Below are positions 832 to 21,777 of a DNA stretch of 42,446 nt, in pieces (positions within the stretch are counted from its first letter, which is position 1; the number at the start of each line of letters is the position of its first letter). A program made the translations under genes and the position numbers. The DNA lies in NCBI GenBank assembly GCA_042568575.1, contig JBHPIO010000011.1:1-42446 (forward strand), written 5' to 3'. The stretch comes from Patescibacteria group bacterium. GTDB taxonomy: Bacteria > Patescibacteriota > Gracilibacteria > UBA1369 > PNNO01. The notes beneath the pieces are model-generated. The model saw only the letters and a program-made list of their open reading frames with translations, ran no database searches and had not been told where the DNA came from.

Positions 832-1197
832 TTAAGCTAAGTTATGCTGTGGATTATGCAGTTCAGTGTGGCAATTGTGGCAAAGAAGAATACACTTTTT
901 AAGTTCTCTTTCTATTGCTGAATATTTTCGATTAGATAAAGATCTTAAATCTAATTTGAATTCTTTCTTTTTTGGATCTTGATGATGGAAAGTTAACGCA
1001 GAAAGATTCTTTTTATAACCACATATACCGCATTTACCTCCTAATTCTTGTACAATCCTCTTCTTTCTTCTTAATCCCCTCTCTTGTTGGGCATCATAAG
1101 ATTGATGAGCCTTATTCTTACAAGAAATAGAACAGAACATTTTCTGTTTGCCAATTAACTCCTTTCCACAAATCGTACAGTTTATGACCTTATTCAT
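832..1197 (-). CDS. HNH-family (zinc-finger/HNH) putative homing endonuclease, antisense within the intron
   Basis: N-terminal CxxC...CxxxC zinc finger, then CGICG, LTFHH.DP and C-terminal LLCHNCHTELH, typical of small HNH nucleases. Confidence 0.8.
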   Translation of the reverse strand: MNKVINCTICGKELIGKQKMFCSISCKNKAHQSYDAQQERGLRRKKRIVQELGGKCGICGYKKNLSALTFHHQDPKKKEFKLDLRSLSNRKYSAIERELKKCILLCHNCHTELHNPQHNLA

Positions 1198-1203
1198 AAC
1201 TGT

Positions 1204-1231
1204 ATAATAACATAATACGCTTAAGCGTCAC
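1204..1231 (-). promoter_or_regulatory. Putative antisense (leaderless) promoter for the intron HNH ORF
   Basis: The minus strand reads GTGACG-16 nt-TATTAT with an extended -10 TGn, 6 nt before the ATG at 1197. The perfect palindrome ACGCTTAAGCGT overlaps the -35/spacer. Confidence 0.5.
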
Positions 1232-1482
1232 AGGGCTGCTTGCGAAGTAATTCGCAAGTGATAACTTATCAAATTCGGGGAAGCCTAAATCTATTAAAGA
1301 TACGGTAATCCCGAGCCAAGCTCACATAAGTGAGAAGGTGTAGAGACTAGACGGTAAGCATCCTAACAGGATGAAGGGATAGTCCAGCTCACAAACCCGA
1401 AAGGGGCCATGAAAATGGTAGCGAGATGCATAACCGATTTGTCGCTGGTTCAAGTCCAGCCAGGCCCACCAAACGCTTTAGT

Positions 1483-6298: not shown

Positions 6299-6375
6299 GG
6301 GGCATTAGCTCAGTTGGCTAGAGCGCTACGCTGGCAGCGTAGAGGCCACCGGTTCAAGCCCGGTATGCTCCACCA
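6299..6375 (+). tRNA. tRNA-Ala (GGC)
   Basis: GGGGCAT/ATGCTCC acceptor stem with G3.U70, CTACG-CTGGCAG-CGTAG anticodon arm, GGTTCAAGCC T-arm and encoded CCA. Confidence 0.96.
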
Positions 6376-6418: not shown

Positions 6419-6931
6419 ATGCTCGATCTCATCATCTCTTCTCTCTATTTTATTCTTCCGGCATATGTCGCAAATATGTGTCCGGTGATTTTTGGCAAAC
6501 TTAAATTCCCTTTTGGGAAGCCGATTAGCAAGAAACTTTTTGGTGCGCATAAGACGTATCGTGGCATTTATGTCGCTTATTTTGGCGCGCTTTTAACGTT
6601 ATTCATTCAACAAAAACTCGCGCTAACAGAAATCAGTCTCCTAGATTACGGTACGATTAATCTTTGGCTTTACGCGTTCCTTTTTGGAATTGGAGCAATT
6701 GTCGGCGATCTCGTAAAATCGTATATTAAAAGACGAATAAATATTAAACCTGGTGATCCGTGGATTCCTTTTGATCAACTTGATTTTATTGTTGGAGCAC
6801 TTCTGTTTCTGGCTCCTCTTTATGTTCCTTCATGGGAAGTTATCCTGGTAATAGTTATTGCAACTCCCCTTCTCCATCTTCTAACAAACGTACTTGGATA
6901 CGTTTTGAGGATCAAAAAAGTCTGGTGGTAA
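6419..6931 (+). CDS. carS: CDP-archaeol synthase (CarS/DUF46) family cytidylyltransferase
   Basis: Motifs LPAYVANM.P, FGAHKTYRG and GDLVKSYIKRR.NIKPG.PWIPFDQLDF, multi-TM. Confidence 0.85.
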   Translation: MLDLIISSLYFILPAYVANMCPVIFGKLKFPFGKPISKKLFGAHKTYRGIYVAYFGALLTLFIQQKLALTEISLLDYGTINLWLYAFLFGIGAIVGDLVKSYIKRRINIKPGDPWIPFDQLDFIVGALLFLAPLYVPSWEVILVIVIATPLLHLLTNVLGYVLRIKKVWW

Positions 6932-6961: not shown

Positions 6962-7255
6962 TTAGTAGAAGTGAATGATCAAAGCCACGATTGCGGCGAT
7001 CAGGAAGGCGGCACCAAGTATGAGTTGGAGGATTATAGGCCATATCTTATCGCCCATTCCCCATCTTGCCATACCTTCGATGCCTGAGAACATGTTCATC
7101 TTGCTTTCGGCAGGGGGATATCTCTCGGTTTCTTCGTTGAACTTCCTCGTCCCGAGAATGAAGAAAACGACTGCTAGCACGAATGCTATTCCAGACACAA
7201 CTAATGTCATAGGCATCTCCCTTCTATTCGCTCTGTCCCGCTTATCAAACGACAT
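6962..7255 (-). CDS. Hypothetical two-TM membrane protein
   Basis: 97 aa with two hydrophobic helices and visibly higher GC than its neighbours. Confidence 0.55.
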   Translation of the reverse strand: MSFDKRDRANRREMPMTLVVSGIAFVLAVVFFILGTRKFNEETERYPPAESKMNMFSGIEGMARWGMGDKIWPIILQLILGAAFLIAAIVALIIHFY

Positions 7256-7401
7256 GACGACTCACGTGATGGGGAAAAAATCCCACAACGTTATTGCCAT
7301 CAAGATGGTAACGTTATCACTTTTACTTAGATTGTCAAGGCAGAGCTCTTCTCAATTTAATGAATATCTATAAAATGTTGGAGCGCAACCTACCAAATAT
7401 T

Positions 7402-8661
7402 ATGTGCCTCACAATCCCCGCAAAAGTAGTTGAAGTTAAAGGAGAAAAGGCTGTCATCCAAAAAAATGACAAGCTCCAGGAAATCGATATTCGTACGATC
7501 GAAAACCTTAAAGTAGATGACTGGGTTCTTTATATGTCTGATATTGCTGTGCAAAAAGTTACGCCAGAAGACGCAAAGGAAATTCTTGAGCTACTCGAGC
7601 ACGTACAAAAAACAGATCCTGAAAAACTTGATCCGAAGTTTGTTGAAGTCATTAAACATTCGAAACAGCGAAGGCTTAATAAAGACGAAATCGAGTATCT
7701 TCTTGAAACTGACGGACTTGAAAAAGAGGCTCTTTATAGCGAATCTGAGATGATTCGTCGAACGCACATTAAGGACTTCTTCTGCATTCACGGAATTATT
7801 GAATTTTCTAATTTCTGCCAAAATGACTGCCTCTATTGCGGCCTTCAAAAACAGAATACTGCTATTCGGCGTTATCGAATGCCTATTAATGAAATAGTTG
7901 ATGCAGCTGATGAGGCGGTTAATAAAAAGGGCTATAAGTTGCTAGTTCTTCAGTCTGGCGAAGATCCATATTACACAAAAGAAATGCTTGTTGAACTTAT
8001 TCAAAAAATCAAAGAGAAGTGTAAGGTCTTTATCTTCATGAGTATTGGTGAACGTGATTTTGAAACATACAAGGCAATGAAAGACGCAGGAGCAAGCGGC
8101 GTTCTATTTAGGTTTGAATCGTCTAATCCTGACTTGTTTAAGAAGATTCATCCGGACGGCAAGAGTCTCGAAAAACGTTTTGAGCATTTGAAGTTCATGA
8201 AAGATCTAAAATATTTCATAGCTTCTGGAGGGATTATTGGCATTCCTGGTCAAACTATTTCTGACCTTGCCAATGACATTATTACAATCCGCAATAATGA
8301 TTACGACATGGTTTCGATGGGACCTTTTGTGCCTTGCCCAAATACTCCTTATGCAAATGAAAAGCCCGGCGACATCGAAATGAATCTTAAAATGATTTCT
8401 ACTTTAAGGCTTGAATTAAACAATAAACGAATTCCAGTTGTTACGGCTTTGGAAACTCTCGATCCTGAAAAAGGTCGAAAAAGAGCAATCCAGGCGGGTG
8501 CAAATGCTTTAATGCTCAATGTTACTCCCGAGAAATACGCTCCGCATTACGAGATCTATAAACGAAAACAAGCGCTCGACAATGAGATGTGGGAAAAATA
8601 CGGGTTGTATAATTCTGATGAAAGTTACAAAATGCTTGAAGAAAAATTAACCATCGACTAA
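7402..8661 (+). CDS. HypC/HupF domain fused to a HydE-like radical SAM protein
   Basis: From ATG 7402, MCLTIPAKVVEV...VDDWVLY...AVQKVTPEDAKEILELL is HypC-like with Cys2. It continues in frame into GIIEFSNFCQNDCLYCGL, RYRM, VLQSGED, GIPGQT, MGPFVP.P.TP, GANALM.N.TP and Y.IY..K, which match the HydE family. Confidence 0.88.
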   Translation: MCLTIPAKVVEVKGEKAVIQKNDKLQEIDIRTIENLKVDDWVLYMSDIAVQKVTPEDAKEILELLEHVQKTDPEKLDPKFVEVIKHSKQRRLNKDEIEYLLETDGLEKEALYSESEMIRRTHIKDFFCIHGIIEFSNFCQNDCLYCGLQKQNTAIRRYRMPINEIVDAADEAVNKKGYKLLVLQSGEDPYYTKEMLVELIQKIKEKCKVFIFMSIGERDFETYKAMKDAGASGVLFRFESSNPDLFKKIHPDGKSLEKRFEHLKFMKDLKYFIASGGIIGIPGQTISDLANDIITIRNNDYDMVSMGPFVPCPNTPYANEKPGDIEMNLKMISTLRLELNNKRIPVVTALETLDPEKGRKRAIQAGANALMLNVTPEKYAPHYEIYKRKQALDNEMWEKYGLYNSDESYKMLEEKLTID

Positions 8662-10034
8662 TGTCTAAAACTTCACATATATTTGATGCGGATCAAATCA
8701 CGCATCTGGTAAGCTCAACGAAAAATCCTTCAAAGGATACTATTGAAAAAATTCTCCAAAAAGCCAAAAAAATGAGGGGCATCAATTTAGAAGAAGCCGC
8801 AACTTTAATAAACGCAGACAACCCTCATACAGAGGCAATGTTTAAAACGGCGGGATATATTAAAAACGAAATTTACGGAGAGCGGCTGGTTTTATTCGCT
8901 CCTCTTTATATTTCCAATTACTGCATCAACGACTGTGATTATTGTGGATTTCATGCAAGAAATAAACAAAAACGAATTAAGCTTTCTTTAAAGGAGGTTG
9001 AAGAACAAACACGAATTTTGATCAACATGGGGCATAAAAGATTGCTTCTTGAATTTGGGGAGCATCCGGTTGAAGCACCAATCGATTATATAATTGATGT
9101 TATTAAAACTATTTATAGCGTTAAGGAAGGACGCGGAGAGATTCGTCGTTTGAATGTAAATATTGCTGCGACTACAGTTGAGGACTACAAGAAACTGAAA
9201 GCAGCTGAAATTGGAACGTATCAACTTTTCCAGGAAACATATGATCGGGAAACTTATGAGAGACTTCACAAAGGTCCAAAAGGAGATTTTGAAAGGCAGC
9301 TTTTTGCGCATGATAGAGCGTTTGAAGGCGGAATTGATGATGTGGGGCTTGGGGTGCTTTATGGACTTTACGATTGGAAATTCGATACACTTGCTCTTCT
9401 TTCACATGCGTTTTATTTGGATAAGAAATATGGAGTTGGACCTCATACTTTTTCTGTGCCACGCCTCCAATCTGCACCTACTGTTGATGAAGACTGGCCT
9501 TATGAGGTTACTGAGGATGAACTGCTTAAAATAATAGCTATTTTGCGAATGGCAGTACCTTATACCGGCATGATTATTTCAACGCGTGAAAGGGCTGAAA
9601 TTCGTGAGAAGGCGTTTGAACTTGGCATTTCTCAAACAAGTGCTGCGTCGCAAACATCACCGGGTGGATATGGAAAAGAAGAAGCGCTGAATCAATTTAC
9701 AACGTCTGATGAAAGAAGTGTCGATGAAGTAATTGAGAAAATCCTAGATGATGGATTTATGCCGAGTTTTTGCACGGCCTGTTATCGTTTAGGACGGACT
9801 GGCCAGGACTTTATGGATATTGCAAAACCTGGAGAAATTCATAATTTCTGCAGGCCAAATGCGATTCTTACGTTAAAAGAGTATTTGGAGGATTATGCAT
9901 CTGAGCGCTCAAAAGCAAAAGGACTTAAAATAATCGATAAATATGTGGAAAAGATTCCTTCAAATTCTGTTCGTGAAAAAACTGTAAACAGGCTGAAGTT
10001 AATTGAAAAAGGTGAAAGAGATTTATACTTCTAA
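8661..10034 (+). CDS. hydG: [FeFe]-hydrogenase H-cluster radical SAM maturase HydG
   Basis: FAPLYISNYCINDCDYCGF, IGTYQLFQETY, GPHTFSVPR (dangler-Fe His) and the C-terminal CX2CX22C motif (FCTACYRLGRTG...HNFC), ending GERDLYF. TAATG overlap with the upstream gene. Confidence 0.94.
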   Translation: MSKTSHIFDADQITHLVSSTKNPSKDTIEKILQKAKKMRGINLEEAATLINADNPHTEAMFKTAGYIKNEIYGERLVLFAPLYISNYCINDCDYCGFHARNKQKRIKLSLKEVEEQTRILINMGHKRLLLEFGEHPVEAPIDYIIDVIKTIYSVKEGRGEIRRLNVNIAATTVEDYKKLKAAEIGTYQLFQETYDRETYERLHKGPKGDFERQLFAHDRAFEGGIDDVGLGVLYGLYDWKFDTLALLSHAFYLDKKYGVGPHTFSVPRLQSAPTVDEDWPYEVTEDELLKIIAILRMAVPYTGMIISTRERAEIREKAFELGISQTSAASQTSPGGYGKEEALNQFTTSDERSVDEVIEKILDDGFMPSFCTACYRLGRTGQDFMDIAKPGEIHNFCRPNAILTLKEYLEDYASERSKAKGLKIIDKYVEKIPSNSVREKTVNRLKLIEKGERDLYF

Positions 10035-10035
10035 T

Positions 10036-10064
10036 TTGACAATTTTGAACTTTGTGGCTAAAAT
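10036..10064 (+). promoter_or_regulatory. Sigma70 promoter
   Basis: TTGACA-17 nt-TAAAAT immediately after the hydG stop. Confidence 0.7.
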
Positions 10065-10090
10065 TCGCTCCTTGGAAATTAATATCTAAA

Positions 10091-11272
10091 ATGATTGAAG
10101 AAAGCTTGAAAGACCCTGGGAGCAGGAGTAGTAGTGAAAAAAATGGCCATGACCCTGAGCTGCATGAAATTGCAGAGGAATGTGATAGAAATCCAGTAAA
10201 TATATTTGGAGAAGAAACTGGCAATGAAGCAGGTGAGGTTATACAGGCAATTTATGGAATTCCTAATAGCCACTTTGATCAACCGTTAAACTCGCTTGGT
10301 GTTATTCCAGAAGGAATGTACGCTGCAAGTTGCGATGAAGACAGAAGCCTCCGAGATGATGTCCCTGGTGGACTTGTTGAACATGAAGGTGTGATTTTTT
10401 ATGCAACAACCGATCACGGAGTGCTAAGAAGCTGTGACGAACGAAAACCGCACAATGACGATGCATATTTTGTGATTCCTGAACAAAAAACGATTGGTGC
10501 TGCAGATGGCGTTAGTGGGAACCCAAAAAGAAATGATAAAGGACGTATGGCAGCTTCGGTTGCAACACTTGCAGCACTAATGGAAGCGCACCTTGATCTA
10601 CCGATGAGAAAATTAATAGAAATAATGCATGGAGCCGCTTTAAAACATAGATTATTTATAAGAGATCAATGGAAAAAACAAAAACAAAAAAAGGAAAAAG
10701 AGCCTCCAAAAAACTTAACTACAAGCACCGTAGCTCGCCTTAATAATAACAACGTTATTGAGTGTGCAAGTATAGGAAATACACGAGCGTTAGTTATTAG
10801 AGGGGAAAAAGCTCATCGCCTAACTTATGATCACACGATGCTAAATAGCAAAATGGGACATATGGAAATAACTGAAGAGCAAGCTTTTCGTATATTCGGA
10901 CCTTTCGCAATTCGTATGAAAAACAACCTTGTACAAGCGCTTGGGAGTGATGAAAATTTGCATCCTGGCGAAGATCCTGATTCTAATATAAAGCATGTGA
11001 ATATCAAACCTTTCTATGAAACGTTTCAGGCTCAAGGTGGGGATGTTTTATTAATATGTTCGGATGGAGTTACAGATGTTATGACTGACGACGAAATCGC
11101 TGAGTTTGTTTATGAAAGGAGACAAAAAAACATGTCTCTAGCAGAAATAATTGATGAACTTAAAGAGCATGTAATTTATCTAATGAAATACAGTCGCAAT
11201 GGGGATCATGAATATCCAAATAAACACGATGGCGACAACATTGTGATAGTCGGACTCGTTGTTCCGGAATAA
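10091..11272 (+). CDS. PP2C/PPM-family protein phosphatase-like protein with N-terminal extension
   Basis: Motifs HNDDA, AADGVSG, SIGNTRA (GDSR variant), LTYDH, QALG, ICSDGVTD and DGDNI. Confidence 0.85.
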   Translation: MIEESLKDPGSRSSSEKNGHDPELHEIAEECDRNPVNIFGEETGNEAGEVIQAIYGIPNSHFDQPLNSLGVIPEGMYAASCDEDRSLRDDVPGGLVEHEGVIFYATTDHGVLRSCDERKPHNDDAYFVIPEQKTIGAADGVSGNPKRNDKGRMAASVATLAALMEAHLDLPMRKLIEIMHGAALKHRLFIRDQWKKQKQKKEKEPPKNLTTSTVARLNNNNVIECASIGNTRALVIRGEKAHRLTYDHTMLNSKMGHMEITEEQAFRIFGPFAIRMKNNLVQALGSDENLHPGEDPDSNIKHVNIKPFYETFQAQGGDVLLICSDGVTDVMTDDEIAEFVYERRQKNMSLAEIIDELKEHVIYLMKYSRNGDHEYPNKHDGDNIVIVGLVVPE

Positions 11273-11323
11273 TTATTTCTAAAATGTTGCGAAGGATGTC
11301 TTTTTGATATATCTTATTCATCG

Positions 11324-11854
11324 ATGTCTGAACAACAAAAAAAATTAAAAATAGGCTGGTTTTCCTTTACGTGCTGTGAAGATTCAACAATCATGTTCAC
11401 AGAAATGTTGAACGACCATTTTTTTGCGTGGTCTAAAATTATTGAATTTAGACATGCAAATATCCTCAAAAGTAAAAATGAGATGTCTGATATCGATGTA
11501 GCTTTTGTTGAAGGAGCTATCGCTTCTGATCGCGATAAAGAAAAACTTTTAAAAATCCGAGACGTTTCTAAGTATATTGTTGCAATTGGATCTTGCGCTG
11601 TAACAGGCCTTCCAACAGGACATCGAAACAATTTCAGCGAAGAAATGAAAGAAGAAATTTCGCCTTATCTAAAGCAATTTCATCAAAGTGCACGTGTATA
11701 TGCCCTTCACGAACTTATCCAAGTAGACGATAAAGTAGCAGGCTGCCCAATGATCGAAGCACAATTCGTAGTAGCCATCGACAAATATCTAAAAATGTTC
11801 AAAGTCATCTCCGAAGATGATTCAATAATCAACCACAAAAATGCATCAGATTAA
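11324..11854 (+). CDS. [NiFe]-hydrogenase small subunit (short, proximal-cluster-only; group 3 delta/HoxY-like)
   Basis: WFSFTCCEDS, DVAFVEGA, VAIGSCAVTG and VDDKVAGCP motifs. 176 aa, overlaps the large subunit start. Confidence 0.88.
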   Translation: MSEQQKKLKIGWFSFTCCEDSTIMFTEMLNDHFFAWSKIIEFRHANILKSKNEMSDIDVAFVEGAIASDRDKEKLLKIRDVSKYIVAIGSCAVTGLPTGHRNNFSEEMKEEISPYLKQFHQSARVYALHELIQVDDKVAGCPMIEAQFVVAIDKYLKMFKVISEDDSIINHKNASD

Positions 11855-13154
11855 TATATCGATTGAAGGATTATCTAAAATTGAAGGACATCTGGATATG
11901 GATGTTGTTATTAAGGATAACAAGATTACAGATGTTGAATTTAAGATTATGGAGAATAAGAGATTTTTTGAAAAAGCAATTCTTGGGAAGCCTTTCAATC
12001 AGGTTCCACAGCTGCTTTCACGTATTTGCGGAACGTGCAGTATTGCGCATCTCCTAGGTGCAATTGAAGCTGTTGAAGACGCTCTTGATTACAAGCCATC
12101 CGAACAGACAATGATATTAAGAAAGCTTCTCACATATGGACTGATGATACGCGATCACGCACTTCATCTTTATATCTTCACATTGCCGGATGTTATCGGC
12201 AAGGATTCGATTCTTGATTTTGACGAGAATGACGAGAGAGAACACAAATTGCTCCACGACATGTTTGACGTAAAACGTGCCGGAAACAACTTATCTACAA
12301 TCATAGGAGGACGTGCAGTACATGCGCCTTTCCCAATGCCCGGAGGGTTCGTTAAATATCCAACTCAAGAAGAGCTGGAAGCTTCACGCAAAGAGCTTTT
12401 AGAAATGCGTGAAAAAATTCTCTACCTACTTCAGGTTTTCGATGAATGTGATTTCAGTCTTGAAAGAAAAACTAAATTCGTAGGTCTTAAAACTGAAGAT
12501 TATAGTTTCTTGGATGGTCCTGCATTATGTAGTGAAGGAAATTTTTGTGTTCCAGAAAAGAGTTTTAGAGATCAATTAAAAGAAGTTGTAATCCCCTACT
12601 CAACAGCTAAGGCATACACTTTGCAGGGCGAAGAATACATGGTTGGAGCTCTAGCTCGAATGAATGTAAATCGAGAGGCTCTCCACCCAAATACTCAAAA
12701 AGATGCAAAGAAATATATAGACAGATTTCCTTCAATTGACGTTTATCATAACAACCTTGCACAGGCTATCGAGACTCTTCATTCGATAGATCATGCAGTT
12801 GAGATTCTTGAAACACTAAAGATCACGCCTGTTCCACCGGATAAGCTTACTCCAAAAGCAGGTGAAGGAGTGGGAGTTCTTGAAGCACCTCGTGGAACTT
12901 TGTATCACTATGTTGCTACTGACGCTGAAGGAATTATTACAAAAGCTGAAGTTGTGGTTCCAACTGCGCAAAATCAAATCAATATTGAAAATGATATTCG
13001 CGCACTAGTCCAACTACATCTTGATAAGGATGGAGAGAATATGGATAAAGATCTAGTTCGCTTTGAAATCGAGAAGTTAATTCGCGCATACGACCCATGT
13101 ATGAGTTGTGCAACTCACTTTTTGAAGATTAATTGGCAAATTCATGGAAGTTAA
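11841..13154 (+). CDS. [NiFe]-hydrogenase large subunit (group 3b-related)
   Basis: KIEGH, L1 motif SRICGTCSIAH, HALHLY, EAPRGTLYH, VVPTAQN and L2 motif RAYDPCMSCATH, plus an 11-aa C-terminal extension. Confidence 0.95.
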   Translation: MHQINISIEGLSKIEGHLDMDVVIKDNKITDVEFKIMENKRFFEKAILGKPFNQVPQLLSRICGTCSIAHLLGAIEAVEDALDYKPSEQTMILRKLLTYGLMIRDHALHLYIFTLPDVIGKDSILDFDENDEREHKLLHDMFDVKRAGNNLSTIIGGRAVHAPFPMPGGFVKYPTQEELEASRKELLEMREKILYLLQVFDECDFSLERKTKFVGLKTEDYSFLDGPALCSEGNFCVPEKSFRDQLKEVVIPYSTAKAYTLQGEEYMVGALARMNVNREALHPNTQKDAKKYIDRFPSIDVYHNNLAQAIETLHSIDHAVEILETLKITPVPPDKLTPKAGEGVGVLEAPRGTLYHYVATDAEGIITKAEVVVPTAQNQINIENDIRALVQLHLDKDGENMDKDLVRFEIEKLIRAYDPCMSCATHFLKINWQIHGS

Positions 13155-13620
13155 ATTTCGCACAGCAGGCTTAGGCGATATTAAGGATCTACAAACCCTT
13201 AAGTACGATCTTTGGAAGTATGAAGACGATAATTTTTGCGATATCACAGATCCAAATTATGCAAAAACAGATAAATATGCTGAAGATCTAAAAAAACAAA
13301 TAGAAGACCCTGGTTTTGCAATTATTGTTGCTGAGTATGAAGATGAGATAATTGGTGCCGTTTATGGCGAAGTCTTTGAAGCGACAAAATATAAAAGGAT
13401 CAAAATTGACTCCGAACTGATGAGTCTTTACGTGAAGGAAGAGCATCGAAATAAGAAGATCGGAGCAAAACTTGTTGATGAGTTTACTAAATGGGCAAAA
13501 AGCAAAAACGCAGATCAGATTAAGGTAGAACCTTATTATAATAATGAGGGATCCTTAAGATTCTATGAACGCGAGGGTTTTGAAGGTTATGTTGTTATGT
13601 TGAGGAAGAAGCTGAAATAA
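13144..13620 (+). CDS. GNAT family N-acetyltransferase
   Basis: LYVKEEHRNKKIGAKLV and NNEGSLRFYEREGF motifs. Confidence 0.9.
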   Translation: MEVKFRTAGLGDIKDLQTLKYDLWKYEDDNFCDITDPNYAKTDKYAEDLKKQIEDPGFAIIVAEYEDEIIGAVYGEVFEATKYKRIKIDSELMSLYVKEEHRNKKIGAKLVDEFTKWAKSKNADQIKVEPYYNNEGSLRFYEREGFEGYVVMLRKKLK

Positions 13621-13697
13621 TCTAGGATACACACCTATCTAGATTGGCAAAATCGCCTTTTTGTGCTATTCTATTAAGAATTACTAATCAAGTATTT

Positions 13698-14336
13698 ATG
13701 AATGCTGAACCAGCACATGGTGAGTCTAGTGAATCTCAAGATTCACTTATAAATAAACTCATCGATAGAACATTTGAAGTCCTTGGACAAGCAGATGCTA
13801 ATCAAGAACAGAGAGAAGAATTAGCAAAACAAGTCGTTGAAAAGCTAAGTGAATATGATGAAGAAACTGCACATGAAGCTTTATTAAGAATGACAGACAG
13901 TCTTAATCCCGGCGAAATTGATAACGAAGCACATATGCTTATGTTTCTTGGATGGGAAGCTAATGCAATTCTTGATGAAAAAAAGCCACCTATTGAGCTC
14001 GATGAGGGAGATGAAGTTATTGCTGAACACGCAATCGCAAAACTTAAAGGATTACGAACAGTTAATATAAATGTCTTTTCCGATGTAAGTGAAGCCCTCG
14101 ATACGATAATTAGCACTGAAATATCTCCTGATATAGAAGATAACGAAGCAGTATTCCCAGAAATCGAAGATAGTATGACTTTTGGGGAAGCAAAAGAAAT
14201 CATATCTAAAAATGCGCCACTTTTGGCTATTAGGCCAAATACAACAACTGCAGACATAGATTACAGACTCCTTGGAACGATTCGTGATCGAATGGAGGAT
14301 GAAATTGGACAAGATATTGAACAAAGTAGGAATTAA
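13698..14336 (+). CDS. Hypothetical acidic protein (paralog A)
   Basis: N-terminus DSLINKLIDRT..LGQADA...EALLRM.DSL is shared with the downstream gene. It has its own promoter-like upstream sequence. Confidence 0.7.
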   Translation: MNAEPAHGESSESQDSLINKLIDRTFEVLGQADANQEQREELAKQVVEKLSEYDEETAHEALLRMTDSLNPGEIDNEAHMLMFLGWEANAILDEKKPPIELDEGDEVIAEHAIAKLKGLRTVNINVFSDVSEALDTIISTEISPDIEDNEAVFPEIEDSMTFGEAKEIISKNAPLLAIRPNTTTADIDYRLLGTIRDRMEDEIGQDIEQSRN

Positions 14337-14417
14337 ATAAATTCTTCCGGCGGAACTCTTATGATTTGCAAAATTATCTTTTTGTGCTATATAAGATGAG
14401 ACATTATTCCAGAATTT

Positions 14418-15059
14418 ATGACTGCAGAACTTGCACATTGTGAAAATAACGAATCTAACGAATCTACGGATTCGCTTGTAACTAAATTGGTTGATAGAAC
14501 ATTAGAATCTTTGGGGCAGGCAGACGCTCAAAATAGCCAAAAAGAAGAATTAGGTCTTTTCATAGAAGCAGAATTACATGGTTTCGACGCAGATACCGCA
14601 AGAGATGCGCTTCTAAGAATGAGGCATAGCTTAATGCCAGATTCTCCTAACTTTCAACAAATTGCAAGTGCAAAAATGATGCTTCAATTGCTTAAAAGAG
14701 AAGCTTTAGAACTTAGAGAAGCAAGGCAAACTCCAAATGAACTCCCAAACTTAAATGAATTGAAAATAAATCAAGGACTATCAAGACTCAAAGAATTGCT
14801 TGTAATGGATGAAGAAGCATATAATCGTGTTTATAGCGCGTTAGAGCAATTTACAACAATTCTAATTGAGGACTATCAAGAAAATGACCAACCAATTTTA
14901 GAAGATGTAGGATGGGAAACTTTTGGAGAAGTTAAGCTTACCTTGGAATATCATATGCCATTTCTGTGCATAACTTTCTTAACAAGACCCACTGAAATAA
15001 ATATTGAAATATTGTCAGAAATTCTAGACCGTTTTAATGAAGACGCTGATTTGGCTTAG
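14418..15059 (+). CDS. Hypothetical acidic protein (paralog B)
   Basis: DSLVTKLVDRT..LGQADA...DALLRM.HSL and TFGEVK match paralog A. Confidence 0.7.
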   Translation: MTAELAHCENNESNESTDSLVTKLVDRTLESLGQADAQNSQKEELGLFIEAELHGFDADTARDALLRMRHSLMPDSPNFQQIASAKMMLQLLKREALELREARQTPNELPNLNELKINQGLSRLKELLVMDEEAYNRVYSALEQFTTILIEDYQENDQPILEDVGWETFGEVKLTLEYHMPFLCITFLTRPTEINIEILSEILDRFNEDADLA

Positions 15060-15404
15060 AATATCATTAGTATTTCCTTCCGGCGGCACCCCGATTATTT
15101 TCACCTCGTTAATCATTCTTAGTTTTTTGTACAGTTTAAGTTGCCATCCAAGATCAAAGTCATGCATGGAATATGGCTTTTCTGTAACGAAATCCTCGAC
15201 TTTTGTAAAAACGTGAGGCTTTTTTAAACCCTCAACTGTATCTATTAGAACTAGTTCATCGGTGTCTTCTGGAAGGTTTTCGGTTGGATCAAATTCCCTA
15301 AAATCGATTTCCGGAAAAGCTTCACGCAATTGCGATGCAAGTTTGAGTGGCATTGAATCTTCTTCAACAAGTAGATTCCCAACTAGATATATTATTTGAG
15401 ACAT
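15024..15404 (-). CDS. Divergent hydrogenase maturation protease-like protein (HycI/HybD fold)
   Basis: VGNLLVEEDS (cf. GxGNxLxxDDG), LVLIDTV, SMHDFDL (cf. SxH) and IIGVP motifs. It lies close to a large subunit that has a cleavable tail. Confidence 0.7.
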   Translation of the reverse strand: MSQIIYLVGNLLVEEDSMPLKLASQLREAFPEIDFREFDPTENLPEDTDELVLIDTVEGLKKPHVFTKVEDFVTEKPYSMHDFDLGWQLKLYKKLRMINEVKIIGVPPEGNTNDILSQISVFIKTV

Positions 15405-15492: not shown

Positions 15493-15723
15493 ATGACTAA
15501 AGAAGTATCAACTTGTCCACAACTTATTACAACAGAACCATTTCAACTACATCCAAAACCTACTATAAAAGCAGATGGTGAGATAGTAAGTGTAAGTAAA
15601 CTACAAACTCCAGAGTGTAGAGCCATGTCCCATTGTAGCGATACAATTAGAATAGATTTTAATCATGCAGTAAAAGTTTGCATGAGTGATGATCATGTAA
15701 ATTGTCCTCAATTCAGAGGCTAG
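15493..15723 (+). CDS. Small hypothetical Cys-containing protein
   Basis: TTGACA at 15439 precedes the ATG at 15493. The stop overlaps that of the convergent gene. Confidence 0.45.
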   Translation: MTKEVSTCPQLITTEPFQLHPKPTIKADGEIVSVSKLQTPECRAMSHCSDTIRIDFNHAVKVCMSDDHVNCPQFRG

Positions 15724-17990
15724 ATCATCGGTTCCTCGAAATCTTCCGGCTGATCACCAGGCGCCAATTCAATTTCACCTGACTCATCCCACTTGGAAAG
15801 CATGTCTTCAACTTTAGCTACTGGAGTTGAGTATTTCTTTCGAGACTGTTCTACAATTTCTTTAGTGTAATCGTCTTTTGGCTTAACCACATCGAGAGTT
15901 CGGCCTGAGAACGGCCTTCGTACTTCTCCTTTTATGGACATCTTTGTGTAGAAATTTCGAACCGCAAGATTGATAATATCACGAACTTTAAATACCGGAG
16001 TGTACTCATTTTCCAAAACTACGGCATCGTCAGCACCTACACGGAATGTGATCATTGAGCCAACATTACCAAATACAGTCTTTACCATCTGATCAGTTAA
16101 TTGCCCCACAAACTGATGGGCAATCGTTAAATTTAATCTATATTTACGTGCCTCAGATAAAATTTCTTCAAAAGTATCTGTAGCAAAGTTCTGGAACTCA
16201 TCCACATAGAAGTAGAAATCAGTTCGATCCTCTTCTCGCATATCAGCACGACTCATTGCTGCCTGATACATTTTCGTAATAATCATAGCTCCGATCAAAT
16301 TCGAGTTTTCTTCTCCAAGTAGACCTTTAGACACCTTCATCAATAGGATCTTCTTTTTATCCATTACTTCTCGAATGTTGAATTTGTTAGTTGGTTGACC
16401 AATAATATTTCTAATCATGTTCGTTGCAACAAACTGACCAACTTTATTCAAAAGAGGTGTAATTGCCTCAGCATCAAATTTTTCACTCCATCCAGCAAAC
16501 TCGTTCACCCAGAAGTTTTTAACGACCGAATCTTTAATTCTGGCTGTGATCGTTTGTCTGTAATTCTTGTCCGAAAGCATCTTTAAGATACTCAAAACAG
16601 TTGTGTTTGGTGAGTCAAGAAGCGCCAGAGTTGTGTATCTTAAAACGTGTTCGAGCCTGTCACTCCAGTTTGAACCGAATAGCTTTTTAAAGATATTAAT
16701 AAACCCGACAGTCATCTGCATCTTGTATGCTTCATCAACCTTCTCCAGTGGATTAAACGCAATCGGGAAGTTTGTATCTCCAGGATCAAAATAAACTACA
16801 TCATTAATACGATCTTCTGGGATCATCTGCATAATATTATCAACAAGATCTCCATGAGGATCCAAAACCGCTACACCTTCACCATTTTTAATATCTTCAC
16901 TAATAAAAAGTTCAAGTAGTTTACTTTTCCCTGTACCACTCTTACCTACTGTATAAAGATGTCTTCTTCTGTCTTCACGTTTTATTCCAAAATCATCAAA
17001 CGAATTATGATAATTTGTTTTACCAAAGAAACTCACATCTTTGCCTCGAGTTTTTGGAAGATCCTGAGGCGGTTCCGCCTTTTTAGATAAGACATGGACG
17101 ATATGCGGCACATGGTCAGAATTTGGAAAATGATATAAAGTCGCCAGTTCCTTTGCGCTTAAGATCTGATCTTCATCCATATTTCTCTTTCGGAATGACT
17201 CCAAAAAGGATTTTGCACGAATTGGTCTGCCTGCGACAAACTCATTGAAGTCAATTTTATTATACTGATAAAACGCCTTCGAAATGGCTTCCAAACGAGC
17301 ATTGGCAAGTTGTTGATCTTTAGCAAAACATGCCAGTCGTACCTGGAACTTGAATGGATGAGTTGCCGTTTTTTCAATAAATGCCTTCTTCTCTTCTTCA
17401 AAGAATTCCTTTCTTCCCTTTAGCCTTGTGTAGTTTTTAAGGCGGAATACCCTTTTGATTCCGTTAAAGAACATGCGAAATCTCCGTTGTAAATGATAAA
17501 GCCAGTTGTCATGTTTAGGTGAAACAAGAATTTGAACCCAAAGTTGTTCATCCTGTCCTATTTTTGAAATAACCGCAAAGGCTCCTGCCAAACTATCTAC
17601 TTCAAAATCTTCATAATCGAGAATTGGATAAATGTCGCTCCTTTTTAATTTAAGCTTTGCTCCAGCAAAAGGAAGTTTTTGAGTTATTGCAAAATTAGTA
17701 TAATCCTTGCTATCAATAATTTCGCAATCCGGAAAAGTACTATATAAAAGCCCTTCAACAAGCGCAAAAAGATCAGCCGGCGCTACAATATAGAAATAAG
17801 AATATTGCCTATATCCAAATACTTCAAGACTAATTGTGCGACCTTTAATGGATTTATAAAGGTTATTCAGAAACTGAAGAAATTTTACTTCCTTTTTAGG
17901 ATCAGCTTCTGTTCCTTGAGGGACTACTACATGTAAATATTTTAGATCCATGTGAGGCTTTAAAAAATGTACCGTTGCATCGTGACACAT
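15720..17990 (-). CDS. VirB4/TrwB/HerA-like (DUF87) P-loop ATPase of the type common in CPR
   Basis: DRRRHLYTVGKSGTGKS (Walker A), LDPHGDL, FNPLE, FYVDEFQNF (Walker B) and ILSEARKYRLNLTIAHQF. Confidence 0.88.
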   Translation of the reverse strand: MCHDATVHFLKPHMDLKYLHVVVPQGTEADPKKEVKFLQFLNNLYKSIKGRTISLEVFGYRQYSYFYIVAPADLFALVEGLLYSTFPDCEIIDSKDYTNFAITQKLPFAGAKLKLKRSDIYPILDYEDFEVDSLAGAFAVISKIGQDEQLWVQILVSPKHDNWLYHLQRRFRMFFNGIKRVFRLKNYTRLKGRKEFFEEEKKAFIEKTATHPFKFQVRLACFAKDQQLANARLEAISKAFYQYNKIDFNEFVAGRPIRAKSFLESFRKRNMDEDQILSAKELATLYHFPNSDHVPHIVHVLSKKAEPPQDLPKTRGKDVSFFGKTNYHNSFDDFGIKREDRRRHLYTVGKSGTGKSKLLELFISEDIKNGEGVAVLDPHGDLVDNIMQMIPEDRINDVVYFDPGDTNFPIAFNPLEKVDEAYKMQMTVGFINIFKKLFGSNWSDRLEHVLRYTTLALLDSPNTTVLSILKMLSDKNYRQTITARIKDSVVKNFWVNEFAGWSEKFDAEAITPLLNKVGQFVATNMIRNIIGQPTNKFNIREVMDKKKILLMKVSKGLLGEENSNLIGAMIITKMYQAAMSRADMREEDRTDFYFYVDEFQNFATDTFEEILSEARKYRLNLTIAHQFVGQLTDQMVKTVFGNVGSMITFRVGADDAVVLENEYTPVFKVRDIINLAVRNFYTKMSIKGEVRRPFSGRTLDVVKPKDDYTKEIVEQSRKKYSTPVAKVEDMLSKWDESGEIELAPGDQPEDFEEPMI

Positions 17991-18432: not shown

Positions 18433-18819
18433 TTATTTTTTACCGCATTTACCGCATTTACCGAATGCGTTTATATATGCATCTTCGATATTGAAGTCTT
18501 TTACCCAGCTTAAACAGGAAACACATTTAAAGCTGGCTGGCTTGAAAACATTCTGTATATCACCACATTGGCTGCAAATAAGATGATGATGCGGTCTTTC
18601 TTCTGCTTCATATACAGCTCTTTCTGAAGAAATAACAACTTTTCTTATTTTCCCAGAATGTTCAAGAACCCCAAGATTTCTATAAACTGTTCCAAAACTA
18701 ATCTTTGGAGCTTTCTTCTTTACGATTTTATATATCTCATCAGCAGTAAGGTGAGAATCTGCCTTCTTAAGCTCTTCAAATATAAGCTCCCTCTGATGAG
18801 AATATCGTTGCTGCATCAA
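18433..18819 (-). CDS. Fur/PerR family transcriptional regulator
   Basis: HLTADEIY, ISFGTVYRNL, HHHLICSQCG and C-terminal CGKC. Confidence 0.93.
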   Translation of the reverse strand: MMQQRYSHQRELIFEELKKADSHLTADEIYKIVKKKAPKISFGTVYRNLGVLEHSGKIRKVVISSERAVYEAEERPHHHLICSQCGDIQNVFKPASFKCVSCLSWVKDFNIEDAYINAFGKCGKCGKK

Positions 18820-18917: not shown

Positions 18918-19142
18918 ATGAAAGGCGCTCATGTTGACCCAGTAACTTGTATAGGATGCGGACTTTGCGTTCAACTTTGTCCAGCAGTTTTTGCAATGCA
19001 GGATGATGGGAAATCAAAAGCAGTAAATCCTACAGGAGATGGAAACGACGATTCTCAGCAATGCATTCAGGGATCTATAGACGCATGCCCTGTTACCGCT
19101 ATTAGCTGGACTGAAGAAGAACAAGAAGAAGCTGCTGCATAA
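18918..19142 (+). CDS. Single-cluster [4Fe-4S] ferredoxin
   Basis: CIGCGLCVQLCP...ACPVTAI. Confidence 0.93.
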   Translation: MKGAHVDPVTCIGCGLCVQLCPAVFAMQDDGKSKAVNPTGDGNDDSQQCIQGSIDACPVTAISWTEEEQEEAAA

Positions 19143-20472: not shown

Positions 20473-21777
20473 ATGAAATACCAAGACTCATTTCACTACA
20501 TAGATGAGAATTATACTCCGAAAGATTCGGATGTGATTTGCTTGTATCGTTTTGTTCCAAAACCAGGAACTAGTGTTGAAGAAGCTGCAGAGCAAATTGC
20601 TGCGGAATCTTCAATTGGTACATGGACAAAGATTTCAACAATGAACGAACACATTGCAAACACCCTTAAACCTCATATTTTTGCTTTAGACAAAGTGAAA
20701 GGATTAGTGAAAATTGCTTATCCAATTGGACTTTTTGAGATTGGAAATATGTCTGGGATCCTTTCTTCAATTTGCGGGAATATCCTGGGAATGAAAATTC
20801 TGGAAGAACTGAGAGTTTGTGACATCAAATTTCCAAAAGACGTTATCGAGAAATTTCCCGGGCCAGCTCTTGGAATCGAAGGAATCAGAAAAACCGTTAA
20901 CGTTTACGACCGTCCTTTTACAGGAACGATTGTGAAGCCAAAAGTTGGACTAACTAGCGAACAGCATGCGGAAGTCGGTTATCAAGCGTGGTCAGGTAAT
21001 GAAGGACAAGGTCTTGATATCGTTAAAGACGATGAGAATCTTACTTCTCAGACTTTCAATAGTTTTGATAAAAGAATGGAGCTTACACTAGCAATGAAGA
21101 AAAAAGTTGAAGAGGAAACAGGGCAAAAGAAATTTTATCTTGCAAACATCACTCACTCGAATTTTGATGAAATGATGCGAAGAAGTGATCTTGTTAAAAG
21201 TCTTGGAGGTCATGTATGTATGCTTGATGTTGTGACTCTTGGATTCGCAGCAGTTGAAAGTTACAGACGAAAAAACACTGGTCAAATTATTCATGCTCAT
21301 AGGGCAATGCATGGAGCTATTACAAGGGAACCTGGATTTACAGTTTCGATGCTTGTTCTTTCTAAGGTTTATAGAATGCTTGGAGTCGATCTACTTCATA
21401 CTGGAACTGCAGGCGCTGGAAAAATGGAAGGTGGAGCTCTTGAGACAATGACAATCGTTGATGCACTTGAGAAAGACTCTGTACCTGAAGATCCAAAAGC
21501 AGAATCTCTCGGACAAGAATGGTACGGAATGAAGCCAGTTTTGGCTGTTGCTTCAGGCGGATTACATCCAGGGAAAATCCCGTTAGTCGTTGAGAAAATG
21601 GGAATTGATATCGTTTGCCAAATGGGTGGAGGTTGTCATGGACATCCGGATGGAACTGCTGTTGGTGCTCAAGGAATTGTTCAAGCTACTGAAGCTGCTG
21701 TAAAAGGAATCCCAATTGAAGAATATGCTCAGGATAAGCCAGCTCTAAAGAAAGCACTAGAAAAATGGGGAGTGTAA
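20473..21777 (+). CDS. rbcL: Ribulose-1,5-bisphosphate carboxylase large chain, form III (archaeal type)
   Basis: AAESSIGTW, GNILGMK, GTIVKPKVG, catalytic DIVKDDENLTSQ, HAHRAMH, GKMEG, VASGGLH and GGGCHGHPDG. Confidence 0.93.
   Translation: MKYQDSFHYIDENYTPKDSDVICLYRFVPKPGTSVEEAAEQIAAESSIGTWTKISTMNEHIANTLKPHIFALDKVKGLVKIAYPIGLFEIGNMSGILSSICGNILGMKILEELRVCDIKFPKDVIEKFPGPALGIEGIRKTVNVYDRPFTGTIVKPKVGLTSEQHAEVGYQAWSGNEGQGLDIVKDDENLTSQTFNSFDKRMELTLAMKKKVEEETGQKKFYLANITHSNFDEMMRRSDLVKSLGGHVCMLDVVTLGFAAVESYRRKNTGQIIHAHRAMHGAITREPGFTVSMLVLSKVYRMLGVDLLHTGTAGAGKMEGGALETMTIVDALEKDSVPEDPKAESLGQEWYGMKPVLAVASGGLHPGKIPLVVEKMGIDIVCQMGGGCHGHPDGTAVGAQGIVQATEAAVKGIPIEEYAQDKPALKKALEKWGV

Follow-up and report, generated by a model that had tools for sequence, protein, structure and literature searches.

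A HypC-HydE fusion and HydG encoded beside a minimal [NiFe] hydrogenase in a Patescibacteria genome suggest a HypDEF-independent maturation module

The window, i.e., the whole 42,446-nucleotide stretch of DNA analysed here, belongs to the genome of a Patescibacteria (CPR) bacterium (G000; 1.2 Mb, 81.8% complete, 31 contigs) and places radical-SAM enzymes of the [FeFe] type next to the structural genes of a [NiFe] hydrogenase. The first gene of interest (7402-8661, +) encodes a 419-aa fusion protein, in which a HypC domain (about residues 1-75; positions 7402-7626) is followed by a linker and a radical-SAM HydE domain (about residues 82-390). Its stop codon has one base in common with the start codon of hydG (8661-10034, +), which encodes a radical-SAM tyrosine lyase for the Fe-CO/CN synthon, and reading of this junction (TAATG) bears out the translational coupling of the two genes proposed earlier from the letters of the sequence. 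The 1.29 kb between hydG and the hydrogenase genes is occupied by a gene for a PP2C-type Ser/Thr phosphatase with an N-terminal extension of about 120 aa (10052-11272, +; PF00481, 54.9 bits). It is followed by the genes for a truncated, 176-aa hydrogenase small subunit (11324-11854, +; PF01058, 65.7 bits) and a 437-aa, group-3b-related large subunit (11841-13154, +; PF00374, 117.1 bits), the end of the latter being overlapped by the start of a GNAT acetyltransferase gene (13144-13620, +; PF00583, 59.1 bits). Further along lie the genes for a putative, divergent maturation endopeptidase of the HycI/HybD type (126 aa; 15024-15404, −; HycI-related in hhalign) and a small [4Fe-4S] ferredoxin (74 aa; 18918-19142, +; PF13370, 58.1 bits). 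Upstream of the operon, CbiM, cut by the window edge, and a PDGLE protein make up a Co/Ni uptake module (3-719, +; PF01891, 104.6 bits; PF13190, 64.8 bits), and a tie between this module and the hydrogenase is only conjecture. All the genes named in the sequence-only reading, including this transporter, were recovered at their positions in the window. A CarS-like gene is also present at 6419-6931, although the host is a CPR bacterium and not an archaeon.

HydG scored 570.7 bits against TIGR03955 (cut-off 312.15), and its residues 15-457 gave a full-length alignment with the HydG structure 4WCX (551 bits). It carries the CX3CX2C motif at residue 88 (CINDCDYC) and a C-terminal CX2CX22C motif at residue 371 (CTAC, 22 residues, C), which we take to be the site of the auxiliary cluster on which the Fe-CO/CN synthon is assembled, a feature presumably missing from ThiH. 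Among 51 HydG sequences, the first motif was found in all 51 and the C-terminal motif in 49. For the fusion protein, the HypC part reached 59.5 bits against PF01455 (cut-off 28.5) and 48.6 bits against TIGR00074 (cut-off 48), and residues 1-70 matched the HypC structure 2Z1C with an E-value of 8e-8. The radical-SAM part scored 74.7 bits against PF04055, 266 bits against TIGR03956, by a narrow margin over the cut-off of 254.6, and 249.6 bits against Thermotoga maritima HydE (7O1O) across residues 82-390, and the CX3CX2C motif is carried by 95 of 97 HydE-like ORFs. The dN/dS ratio was 0.03 for the fusion (against its counterpart in L011), 0.07 for HydG and 0.26 for PP2C. Because of the full-length alignment with 4WCX, the cluster motifs and the dN/dS range of 0.03-0.07, the HydG and HydE enzymes look active.

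The fusion itself is widespread. Out of 1047 homologues, the best 120 all had both Pfam domains, and in a set of 80 metagenome loci, 79 of them with HydE, 63 HydE genes were HypC fusions, with two N-terminal types (MCL and MCY) and, in some loci, HypC-HydE-HydG triple fusions of 886-944 aa. At 419 aa and with its N-terminal HypC domain, the window protein departs from a stand-alone HydE of about 350 aa, and a quick tree placed the HydE domains from fusion proteins in clades (98 and 99) separate from unfused HydE. Its N-terminus reads MCLTIP, with a cysteine directly after the initiator methionine, and M1, C2, L3 and P6 were unchanging in 15 of 15 fusions. In an alignment, the histidine of the DWV(I/L)VH motif of Thermococcus kodakarensis HypC is replaced by methionine in the fused HypC.

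The large subunit has all four Ni-Fe cysteines, as had been noted before, in the motifs RICGTCSIAH and DPCMSCATH, the second of which is followed by an 11-residue C-terminal tail (FLKINWQIHGS); C63, C66, C420 and C423 were unchanging in 16 of 16 sequences. Like a group 3b enzyme (HyhBGSL), the hydrogenase has as its nearest solved relatives T. kodakarensis HyhL (5YXY, 233 bits) and Pyrococcus furiosus SHI alpha for the large subunit, and SHI delta for the small subunit. The small subunit, however, aligns just to the first 150 or so residues of P. furiosus sulfhydrogenase delta, so that the proximal-cluster domain alone is left, and in alignments of the short and long forms CCEDS stands in place of CxxC. 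Scores against the NCBIfam equivalogs of the hydrogenase fell far under their cut-offs (268 vs 700 and 61 vs 500). Group 3b enzymes are heterotetramers with beta and gamma subunits and a three-cluster small subunit, whereas the operon here encodes two subunits and no beta or gamma; a search of the genome gave no beta-like gene, and a gamma-like gene only on another contig. For a hydrogenase without diaphorase subunits, the window ferredoxin may be a candidate redox partner.

The maturation-protease-like gene seen earlier is probably a divergent member of the HycI type. The 126-aa protein gave a hhalign probability of 97.6% (E 4.6e-12) with an alignment built from six bona fide HycI sequences, and nothing else in the genome matched a home-made HycI HMM. 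Pfam HycI (PF01750) was the sole family match for 8 of 8 orthologues, all of them below the cut-off (best E 6e-4; window copy 15.3 bits vs a cut-off of 23). Residues G9, N10, D16, D55 and H81 are unchanging, with D16, D55 and H81 kept in 8 of 8 orthologues and aligned with the HycI blocks GNxxxxDD, D(A/T) and SxH, which presumably hold the metal ligands. Large subunits that occur with this protease all keep a tail of 7-14 residues and those that occur without it end at the histidine; removal of the large subunit's C-terminal extension is the presumed role of the protein.

The canonical maturation genes were not found in this setting. As the sequence-only reading had it, the 42 kb hold no HypD, HypE, HypF, HydF or HydA, and genome-wide searches for the same five found none either in G000 or in a relative that shares the operon and is assembled in one contig (1,374,545 bases); HypA was likewise not found in either genome. 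The apparent lack of hypDEF, hydA and hydF might simply be an artefact of assembly, given that G000 is a metagenome bin of 81.8% completeness in 31 contigs. We give this explanation hardly any credence: the one-contig genome likewise yielded none of these genes, four further genomes with HydG, at 97-100% completeness, gave the same outcome, and a search for HypD had hits in 0 of the order's 151 genomes. The usual partners of HydG, HydF and HydA, were found in none of these six CPR genomes, and a control CPR genome (G184) did have HydG together with HydF and HydA. Canonical HypCDEF also occurs in other CPR genomes, e.g., at locus L143.

A linkage of these maturases with [NiFe] genes, expected from the single locus, was found in many genomes and metagenome contigs. 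Among the 13 genomes of the host family, ten have the large subunit; the fusion is present in all ten and HydG in nine. The tenth genome is 74% complete, and its hydrogenase contig starts with the PP2C gene, which comes after hydG in related genomes. The remaining three genomes have an [FeFe] HydA and neither HydE nor HydG. Across a phylum sample of 261 genomes HydG occurred in six: in five, the large subunit is present and HypD, HydA and HydF are lacking, and the sixth has HydA, HydF and an unfused HydE and no large subunit. For loci of at least 10 kb, the large subunit was present in 17 of 31 fusion loci vs 0 of 10 loci with unfused HydE. The gene order hypC-hydE, hydG, (PP2C), small subunit, large subunit is repeated in L007, L009, L030, L032, L033 and L039. 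In other lineages the same radical-SAM pair sits inside full beta-gamma-delta-alpha operons of group 3b (L042, L044, L054, L080 and L119), in the order beta, gamma, HypC-HydE, HydG, small subunit, large subunit, HypA, and it adjoins genes for Mrp-type membrane hydrogenases in L090, L097 and L102.

This linkage is not universal. No hydrogenase-linked gene was within reach in 12 of the 31 long fusion loci, HydG does not accompany the fusion in two genomes (G215 and G282) and in several loci, and one group of fusions without HydG (L057-L064, L067) adjoins type II secretion/pilus genes. Together with the missing histidine of the fused HypC, the loci without a hydrogenase and those beside secretion genes fit a reading in which HydG and HypC-HydE serve another target, such as a divergent protein of the [FeFe] type or a cryptic iron-carbonyl enzyme. 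On that reading the nearby [NiFe] genes would be a sign of common regulation or a common supply of iron, and the HypC-like domain would act as a small, generic carrier of iron. However, no HydA-type domain was found in any fusion-bearing genome searched, the fusion of the host family tracks the large subunit exactly (10 of 10) and is missing from the three HydA genomes, the genes are embedded among hydrogenase structural genes in several lineages, and the HypC family is, to our knowledge, known only from [NiFe] maturation. We therefore consider a different target unlikely.

The main caveat comes from genomes that have the large subunit without the fusion. In the phylum sample the large subunit was found in 56 of 261 genomes, 13 of which have HypD, seven the fusion and 36 neither. 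Of 15 genomes of this last type, 11 have a standalone HypC at their hydrogenase loci, nine a DUF6390 protein and nine an EamA-like transporter, and these genes often take the place in the operon that elsewhere belongs to HypC-HydE and HydG. G264 and G322, from the genus of the HydG-bearing G305, have a syntenic operon and a 90%-identical large subunit without HydE and HydG, and hold only a standalone HypC at the position of G305's fusion and HydG, so that sister species differ solely in the HypC-HydE/HydG module. G305 itself combines HydE/HydG with DUF6390, and G219 has both modules. Since 36 of the 56 genomes have neither system and sister species with so similar a large subunit do without HydE and HydG, the necessity of the module for [NiFe] maturation is not shown. 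The same observations are what would be expected if Fe(CN)2CO were made by another, still unknown route common to most CPR, with a standalone HypC, DUF6390 and an EamA-type transporter, or else material from a host cell, as its candidates, and with HydG and HypC-HydE as optional helpers, e.g., an extra source of CO or CN, or a repair system. We hold this account to be possible though rather doubtful. DUF6390, standalone HypC and a hydrogenase-linked EamA were all absent from the window's family, its one-contig genome included, which leaves the radical-SAM pair as the sole candidate there, and an exchange of modules at a single place in the operon equally fits two alternative solutions or one dispensable module. 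Moreover, a direct role of HydG and HypC-HydE is favoured by strong purifying selection and by the joining of HydE to HypC in one protein.

The interpretation that we prefer, at a probability of roughly 60%, is a HypDEF-independent [NiFe] maturation module made from [FeFe]-type radical-SAM enzymes, with a tyrosine-derived route to the Fe-CO/CN unit. HydG would split tyrosine and build an Fe-CO/CN-cysteine synthon on its own C-terminal cluster, and the HydE domain would then process this synthon. The resulting Fe(CO)x(CN)y unit may move to Cys2 of the HypC domain at the N-terminus of HydE, after which the HypC domain would dock on the apo large subunit and hand over the iron. Nickel insertion would come next, by a route without a HypA found here, and the 126-aa HycI-like protease would finally cut off the 11-residue tail. 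Every chemical transfer in this scheme, like the final ligand set of the enzyme, is one that we infer. The earlier proposal that HydG and the HydE-like protein replace HypDEF came through both of its genomic checks, since the searches gave no hypDEF, hydA or hydF and the maturases are linked with [NiFe] genes in many genomes; the genomes with neither system and the sister species without HydE and HydG speak against it, and replacement can be put forward as what may happen in this family.

Several observations count against the proposed route. The known product of HydG has two CO and one CN, and the [NiFe] site has one CO and two CN. In a quick tree, a canonical [FeFe]-linked CPR HydG nests among [NiFe]-linked HydGs (97), so that the window HydG belongs to no separate clade, and the fused HypC is without its conserved histidine. 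The fusions without HydG, the long fusion loci without a hydrogenase-linked gene and the HypA not found here weigh on the same side.

With known systems the module shares some parts and not others. Like the HydE/HydF/HydG system of [FeFe] maturation, it has a full-length HydG with both cluster motifs and a HydE domain closest to that of T. maritima; unlike that system, it has no HydF scaffold or HydA target among the genes found in the genome or the one-contig relative, HydE bears an N-terminal HypC and falls in clades of its own, and the genes are in [NiFe] operons. Its resemblance to HypC/D/E/F assembly lies in the HypC-family domain with the essential N-terminal cysteine, the four-cysteine large subunit, the C-terminal extension and the putative HycI-type protease, and its difference in the lack of HypD, HypE, HypF and HypA among the genes found, the fusion of HypC to a radical-SAM enzyme and the change from histidine to methionine. 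Radical-SAM enzymes like HydE and HydG have a precedent outside [FeFe] hydrogenases in HmdB and HmdC (Hcg), which act in the synthesis of the [Fe]-hydrogenase cofactor. The window HydE domain matches HmdB weakly (51 bits); unlike HmdB/HmdC, the window proteins are far closer to HydE and HydG proper, which we know only from [FeFe] hydrogenases, and the linked enzyme is a [NiFe] hydrogenase. Full-text literature searches found no published description of such a route, and the HydG, fusion and minimal hydrogenase of this tiny-genome host, in which the usual assembly genes were not found, point to a mode of [NiFe] active-site assembly that has yet to be described.

The accessory genes of the operon vary among its relatives. 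PP2C is a variable insert, present in L007, L011, L029, L030 and L031 and missing in L009 and L032. The GNAT gene is kept 3' of the large subunit in L007 (two copies), L009 and L029, and in a distant family (L124, L125) a GNAT is also placed between the small and large subunits. Small ORFs resembling the window ferredoxin occur at the matching position in L029 and L031.

The operon opens with the gene for a 419-aa HypC-HydE fusion (7402-8661, forward strand), which scores 59.5 bits for HupF_HypC and 266 bits for the HydE equivalog against a cut-off of 254.6. It continues on the same strand with hydG (8661-10034; 570.7 bits, cut-off 312), a PP2C phosphatase gene (10052-11272), the genes for the small (176 aa; 11324-11854) and large (437 aa; 11841-13154) subunits of a [NiFe] hydrogenase, and a GNAT acetyltransferase gene (13144-13620). 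One base is common to the fusion stop and the hydG start in a TAATG junction, and overlaps are also found between the small and large subunit genes and between the large subunit and GNAT genes. T. kodakarensis HypC aligned with the first 70 residues of the fusion and T. maritima HydE with residues 82-390 (249.6 bits), while HydG aligned over its full length to the solved HydG 4WCX (551 bits), with both cysteine motifs present. The dN/dS values relative to the nearest relative (locus L011) were 0.07 (HydG), 0.03 (HydE part of the fusion) and 0.26 (PP2C phosphatase). The fusion start was placed at 7402 because MC(L/Y) begins every homologue, and a longer ORF starting at 7360 was dropped; a 132-aa ORF (6975-7373) was set aside in favour of the small membrane-protein ORF, judged more plausible, that overlaps it on the opposite strand.

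The large subunit has the motifs RICGTCSIAH and DPCMSCATH, the latter followed by 11 residues, and its nearest solved proteins are the group-3b HyhL and the alpha subunit of the P. furiosus sulfhydrogenase (SHI). Similarity between the window small subunit and SHI delta is confined to the first ~150 residues of the latter; moreover, CCEDS replaces the CxxC of other small subunits, and the medial/distal cluster domain is absent. For the 126-aa protein encoded on the reverse strand (15024-15404), HycI was the sole Pfam family match in all eight orthologues, with every score below the cut-off, a comparison of its profile with one built from six bona fide HycI proteins gave 97.6%, and residues D16, D55 and H81 are invariant. 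Judged on its sequence, this protein is probably a divergent HycI-type endopeptidase. The layout proposed in the sequence-only reading, i.e., a fusion gene, a coupled hydG, a co-oriented [NiFe] small/large pair and a maturation-protease-like gene, was recovered in the window with the motifs intact.

Two hydrogenase types could be distinguished. In the first, the large subunit terminates at DPCxxCxxH and is accompanied by a long small subunit and HypA, without a protease; the type seen in the window combines RICGTCS and a tail of 7-14 residues with the 126-aa protease and a small subunit that is short and of CC type. For either type, some genomes have the radical-SAM pair (HypC-HydE and HydG) and others lack it. 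The minimal [NiFe] type occurs in several CPR families (window 11324-11854; loci L133, L134, L140, L141 and L027), with a small subunit of 159-190 aa that has CCED(S/N) for CxxC and no medial/distal cluster domain, a short large-subunit C-terminal tail and its own ~126-aa protease. In two CPR families that are distant from each other, GNAT genes recur among the hydrogenase genes or immediately behind them (13144-13620 in the window; 9007-9372 in L124, 11135-11467 in L125 and 10575-10904 in L119).

The window is contig 3 of the host genome (G000; 1.2 Mb, 31 contigs, 81.8% complete). In this genome HypD, HypE and the H-cluster domain of HydA had no match, HypF gave weak partial matches only, and HydF gave GTPase-domain matches only (no score above 99 bits, cut-off 325), with a like outcome for these proteins in five related genomes, including a single-contig one with the same operon. 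The one-contig relative (1,374,545 bases) and the host genome were searched whole, using HMMs from CPR proteins and tblastn with verified CPR HypD, HypE, HypF, HydF and HydA. HypA, standalone HypC, DUF6390, the beta subunit, HypD/E/F, HydF and HydA were found in neither genome by HMM or tblastn, and the 126-aa gene was the only HycI-like match. The lack of hydA, hydF, hypD, hypE and hypF, claimed earlier for the window, thus extends genome-wide in the 81.8%-complete host and in the one-contig relative. A tblastn search with the five CPR proteins over 80 metagenome loci, kept from a scan of 543 relatives, detected none of them and matched ferredoxin-like stretches alone. A 'HydA' BLAST match within the window was likewise rejected, being a 74-aa ferredoxin with similarity limited to the ferredoxin domain.

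Across the host's order (151 genomes sampled, the host included), HydG exceeded its cut-off in nine genomes, all of the host's family, with the large subunit in 13, HydA in 10 and HypD in none. Within the family the large subunit is present in 10 of 13 genomes, all ten of which encode the fusion and nine HydG; in the tenth (74% complete), the hydrogenase contig starts at the PP2C gene, which in relatives comes after hydG. The other three family members, G014 (L023/L034), G073 (L022/L035) and G032, are without the [NiFe] operon and have an [FeFe] HydA, which in one case is a remnant interrupted by stop codons; in none of the three was HydG, HydE or HypC found. In a phylum-wide sample HydG was found in 6 of 261 genomes. 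In five of these, from five families (G000, G219, G305, G315 and G401), the large subunit is present and HypD, HydA and HydF are absent. The sixth (G184) is canonical: it has HydA, HydG with a neighbouring HydF, and a HydE that is not fused, and it lacks the large subunit. The co-occurrence expected from the sequence-only reading is therefore seen in CPR genomes, where the radical-SAM maturases track the [NiFe] large subunit in the absence of HypD (10/10 in the family; five of the six HydG genomes).

A protein search returned 1047 homologues of the fusion at E <= 1e-20, and the best 120 of the 1047 all have both the radical-SAM and the HypC Pfam domains. Their sources include Peregrinibacteria, Portnoybacteria and Falkowbacteria, with close relatives in Patescibacteria, Peregrinibacteria and Peribacteria records, and public annotation names them '[FeFe] hydrogenase H-cluster radical SAM maturase HydE' or 'biotin synthase'. 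Judged by their N-terminal motifs, at least 63 of the 79 HydE-bearing metagenome loci encode the fusion (31 of MCL type and 32 other, mostly MCY), a lower bound because the regular expression missed L038 and L065, which are fusions by BLAST; among the rest, 14 were unfused and 2 cut by contig ends. This motif-based count replaced BLAST-only detection of HypC, which gave 45 fusions in 80 loci and missed the MCY type. Recurrent neighbours in the 80 loci were the large subunit (25), small subunit (16), 3b gamma-like (13) and beta-like (10) subunits, HypA (12) and HycI (6). Where loci reached at least 10 kb, the large subunit accompanied the fusion in 17 of 31 and some hydrogenase-linked gene in 19 of 31, as opposed to none of the 10 loci with unfused HydE, a contrast that is descriptive because the loci had been selected for similarity to fusion proteins and related loci are not independent of one another.

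Several architectures were seen. The fusion and HydG genes may be embedded in the order beta, gamma, HypC-HydE, HydG, small subunit, large subunit, HypA, or they may follow Mrp-antiporter-like membrane-hydrogenase subunit genes in the order HypA, HydG, HypC-HydE. Elsewhere the large subunit, HycI and a cNMP-binding protein are followed by a one-protein HypC-HydE-HydG of 917-944 aa (L078, L085 and L089), and an 886-aa triple fusion lies within the 3b operon of L080. One fusion clade (L057-L061, L063, L064 and L067) is without an adjacent HydG and adjoins DJ-1/PfpI, pilin-like and type II secretion genes, not hydrogenase genes.

In quick trees with SH-aLRT support only, the fusion HydE domains formed two starred clades (98*, 99*) separate from unfused HydE, and the three 'unfused' rows within these clades are truncated ORFs. 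No specialised [NiFe]-type HydG clade was recovered, since the canonical HydG of G184 nests (97*) among [NiFe]-linked HydG; the split seen between fused and unfused HydE thus has no counterpart in HydG.

The best explanation, which we put at a probability of about 0.6 from sequence and gene context, is that the radical-SAM pair would act in [NiFe] cofactor assembly. Central to this explanation is that HypC, a [NiFe]-specific chaperone, is fused to HydE. Further support comes from hypC-hydE and hydG being flanked, in several lineages, by the structural genes of the hydrogenase, from the partition of the family into genomes with [NiFe] and fusion and genomes with HydA without maturases, and from HypDEF, HydF and HydA not being found in a closed genome.

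The pair is not a universal requirement, however. Among the 56 of 261 genomes in the phylum sample that have the large subunit, 13 have HypD, 7 the fusion and 36 neither, which poses a second puzzle, as a known Fe(CN)2CO pathway is missing from the majority of CPR genomes that encode a [NiFe] large subunit. The zero overlap between HypD and the fusion was rejected as evidence of mutual exclusivity, because the ~1.6 genomes expected by chance is too small a number. Hydrogenase loci examined from 15 of the 36 neither-pathway genomes (L124-L135 and L139-L141) encoded a standalone HypC in 11, a DUF6390 (PF19927) protein with a HypC-like C-terminus in nine and an EamA-type transporter of ~300 aa in nine, often between gamma and small subunit, the slot held by the radical-SAM pair elsewhere. 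DUF6390 was Pfam-confirmed for three sequences from these loci and one from G219 (L118), and EamA for one homologue, to which the remaining ones were linked by BLAST; L118, L119, L026 and L027 are also relevant to this gene set, which may constitute a third maturation or import module. In one genus, three genomes (G305, G264 and G322) are syntenic at 80-90% identity, with large subunits 90% identical, and G305 alone has the fusion and HydG; G264 and G322 have a standalone HypC in that place, the one of G322 sharing 39% identity with the HypC domain of the fusion. Similarly, in a neighbouring family (f2), two genomes have the window-type hydrogenase and protease, HypC, EamA and a 166-171-aa protein with a terminal HypC-like domain, and neither HydE nor HydG was found in them. 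Accessory modules of at least three alternative kinds thus seem to exist, the radical-SAM pair being one.

Whether the pair amounts to a second complete natural pathway to the [NiFe] site is, in our judgement, evenly balanced. In the chemistry that we infer, HydG would derive CO and CN for the iron unit from tyrosine, and HypC-HydE, or the triple fusion in some lineages, would process and deliver that unit, dispensing with HypD, HypE, HypF and carbamoyl phosphate; the replacement of HypD/E/F by HydG and HydE is what the sequence-only reading had proposed. Such a pathway would extend across several families of CPR as well as other uncultured lineages, and would serve both group-3b-like and membrane-bound group-4-like enzymes. 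The HydG synthon has two CO and one CN, whereas the [NiFe] site has one CO and two CN, and the resulting active site could have either the canonical or an altered ligand set. [NiFe] and [FeFe] hydrogenases are a textbook convergence with separate, non-overlapping maturation machineries, a separation that would be broken by [FeFe]-type radical-SAM enzymes feeding a [NiFe] enzyme. We know of no settled source for the [NiFe] CO ligand outside the aerobic HypX route, and the pathway, if true, would give it a defined anaerobic origin. It would also offer a three-gene maturation kit (hypC-hydE, hydG and protease) with which a two-subunit hydrogenase might be produced in a heterologous host. The component families are known and their wiring is new: in the main texts of openly available full-text papers we found no description of HydG/HydE in [NiFe] maturation or of a HypC-HydE fusion. 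In the accessible part of a survey of archaeal maturases (PMC11216029), HydEFG appear only in an [FeFe] context and the term HypC is absent, and the accessible parts of PMC4736985 and PMC7325909 do not treat a HydG/HydE-[NiFe] link or the fusion.

Other features of the window include a group I intron match (1219-1409, forward strand; 64.7 bits, gathering score 50), adjoined by an HNH-endonuclease ORF (832-1197, reverse strand), with no tRNA or rRNA host gene detected nearby. Upstream of the operon, tRNA-Ala(GGC) (6299-6375) is followed by a CDP-archaeol synthase (CarS)-like gene (6419-6931; PF01864 135 bits, NF003114 149.4 bits with a cut-off of 148), in a host that is bacterial; an archaeal origin, which this gene had at first suggested, was rejected because the close relatives are all Patescibacteria. 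Between the GNAT and protease genes lie two paralogous acidic ORFs (13644-14336 and 14418-15059; 230 and 213 aa) with a common N-terminal ...SL..KL.DRT.E.LGQADA... stretch and no Pfam or NCBIfam match. Beside the protease gene, a 756-aa VirD4/TraG-like coupling ATPase (15720-17990, reverse strand), which has three further paralogues in the host genome, is kept in the relatives' loci L007, L009 and L029-L031 at 73-79% identity. A Fur-family regulator (18433-18819, reverse strand) adjoins the ferredoxin, and a RuBisCO large-subunit homologue is found at 20473-21777. Finally, the stretch with an OPT oligopeptide transporter (35853-37634) has 53% G+C compared with ~37% elsewhere, and may be acquired DNA.
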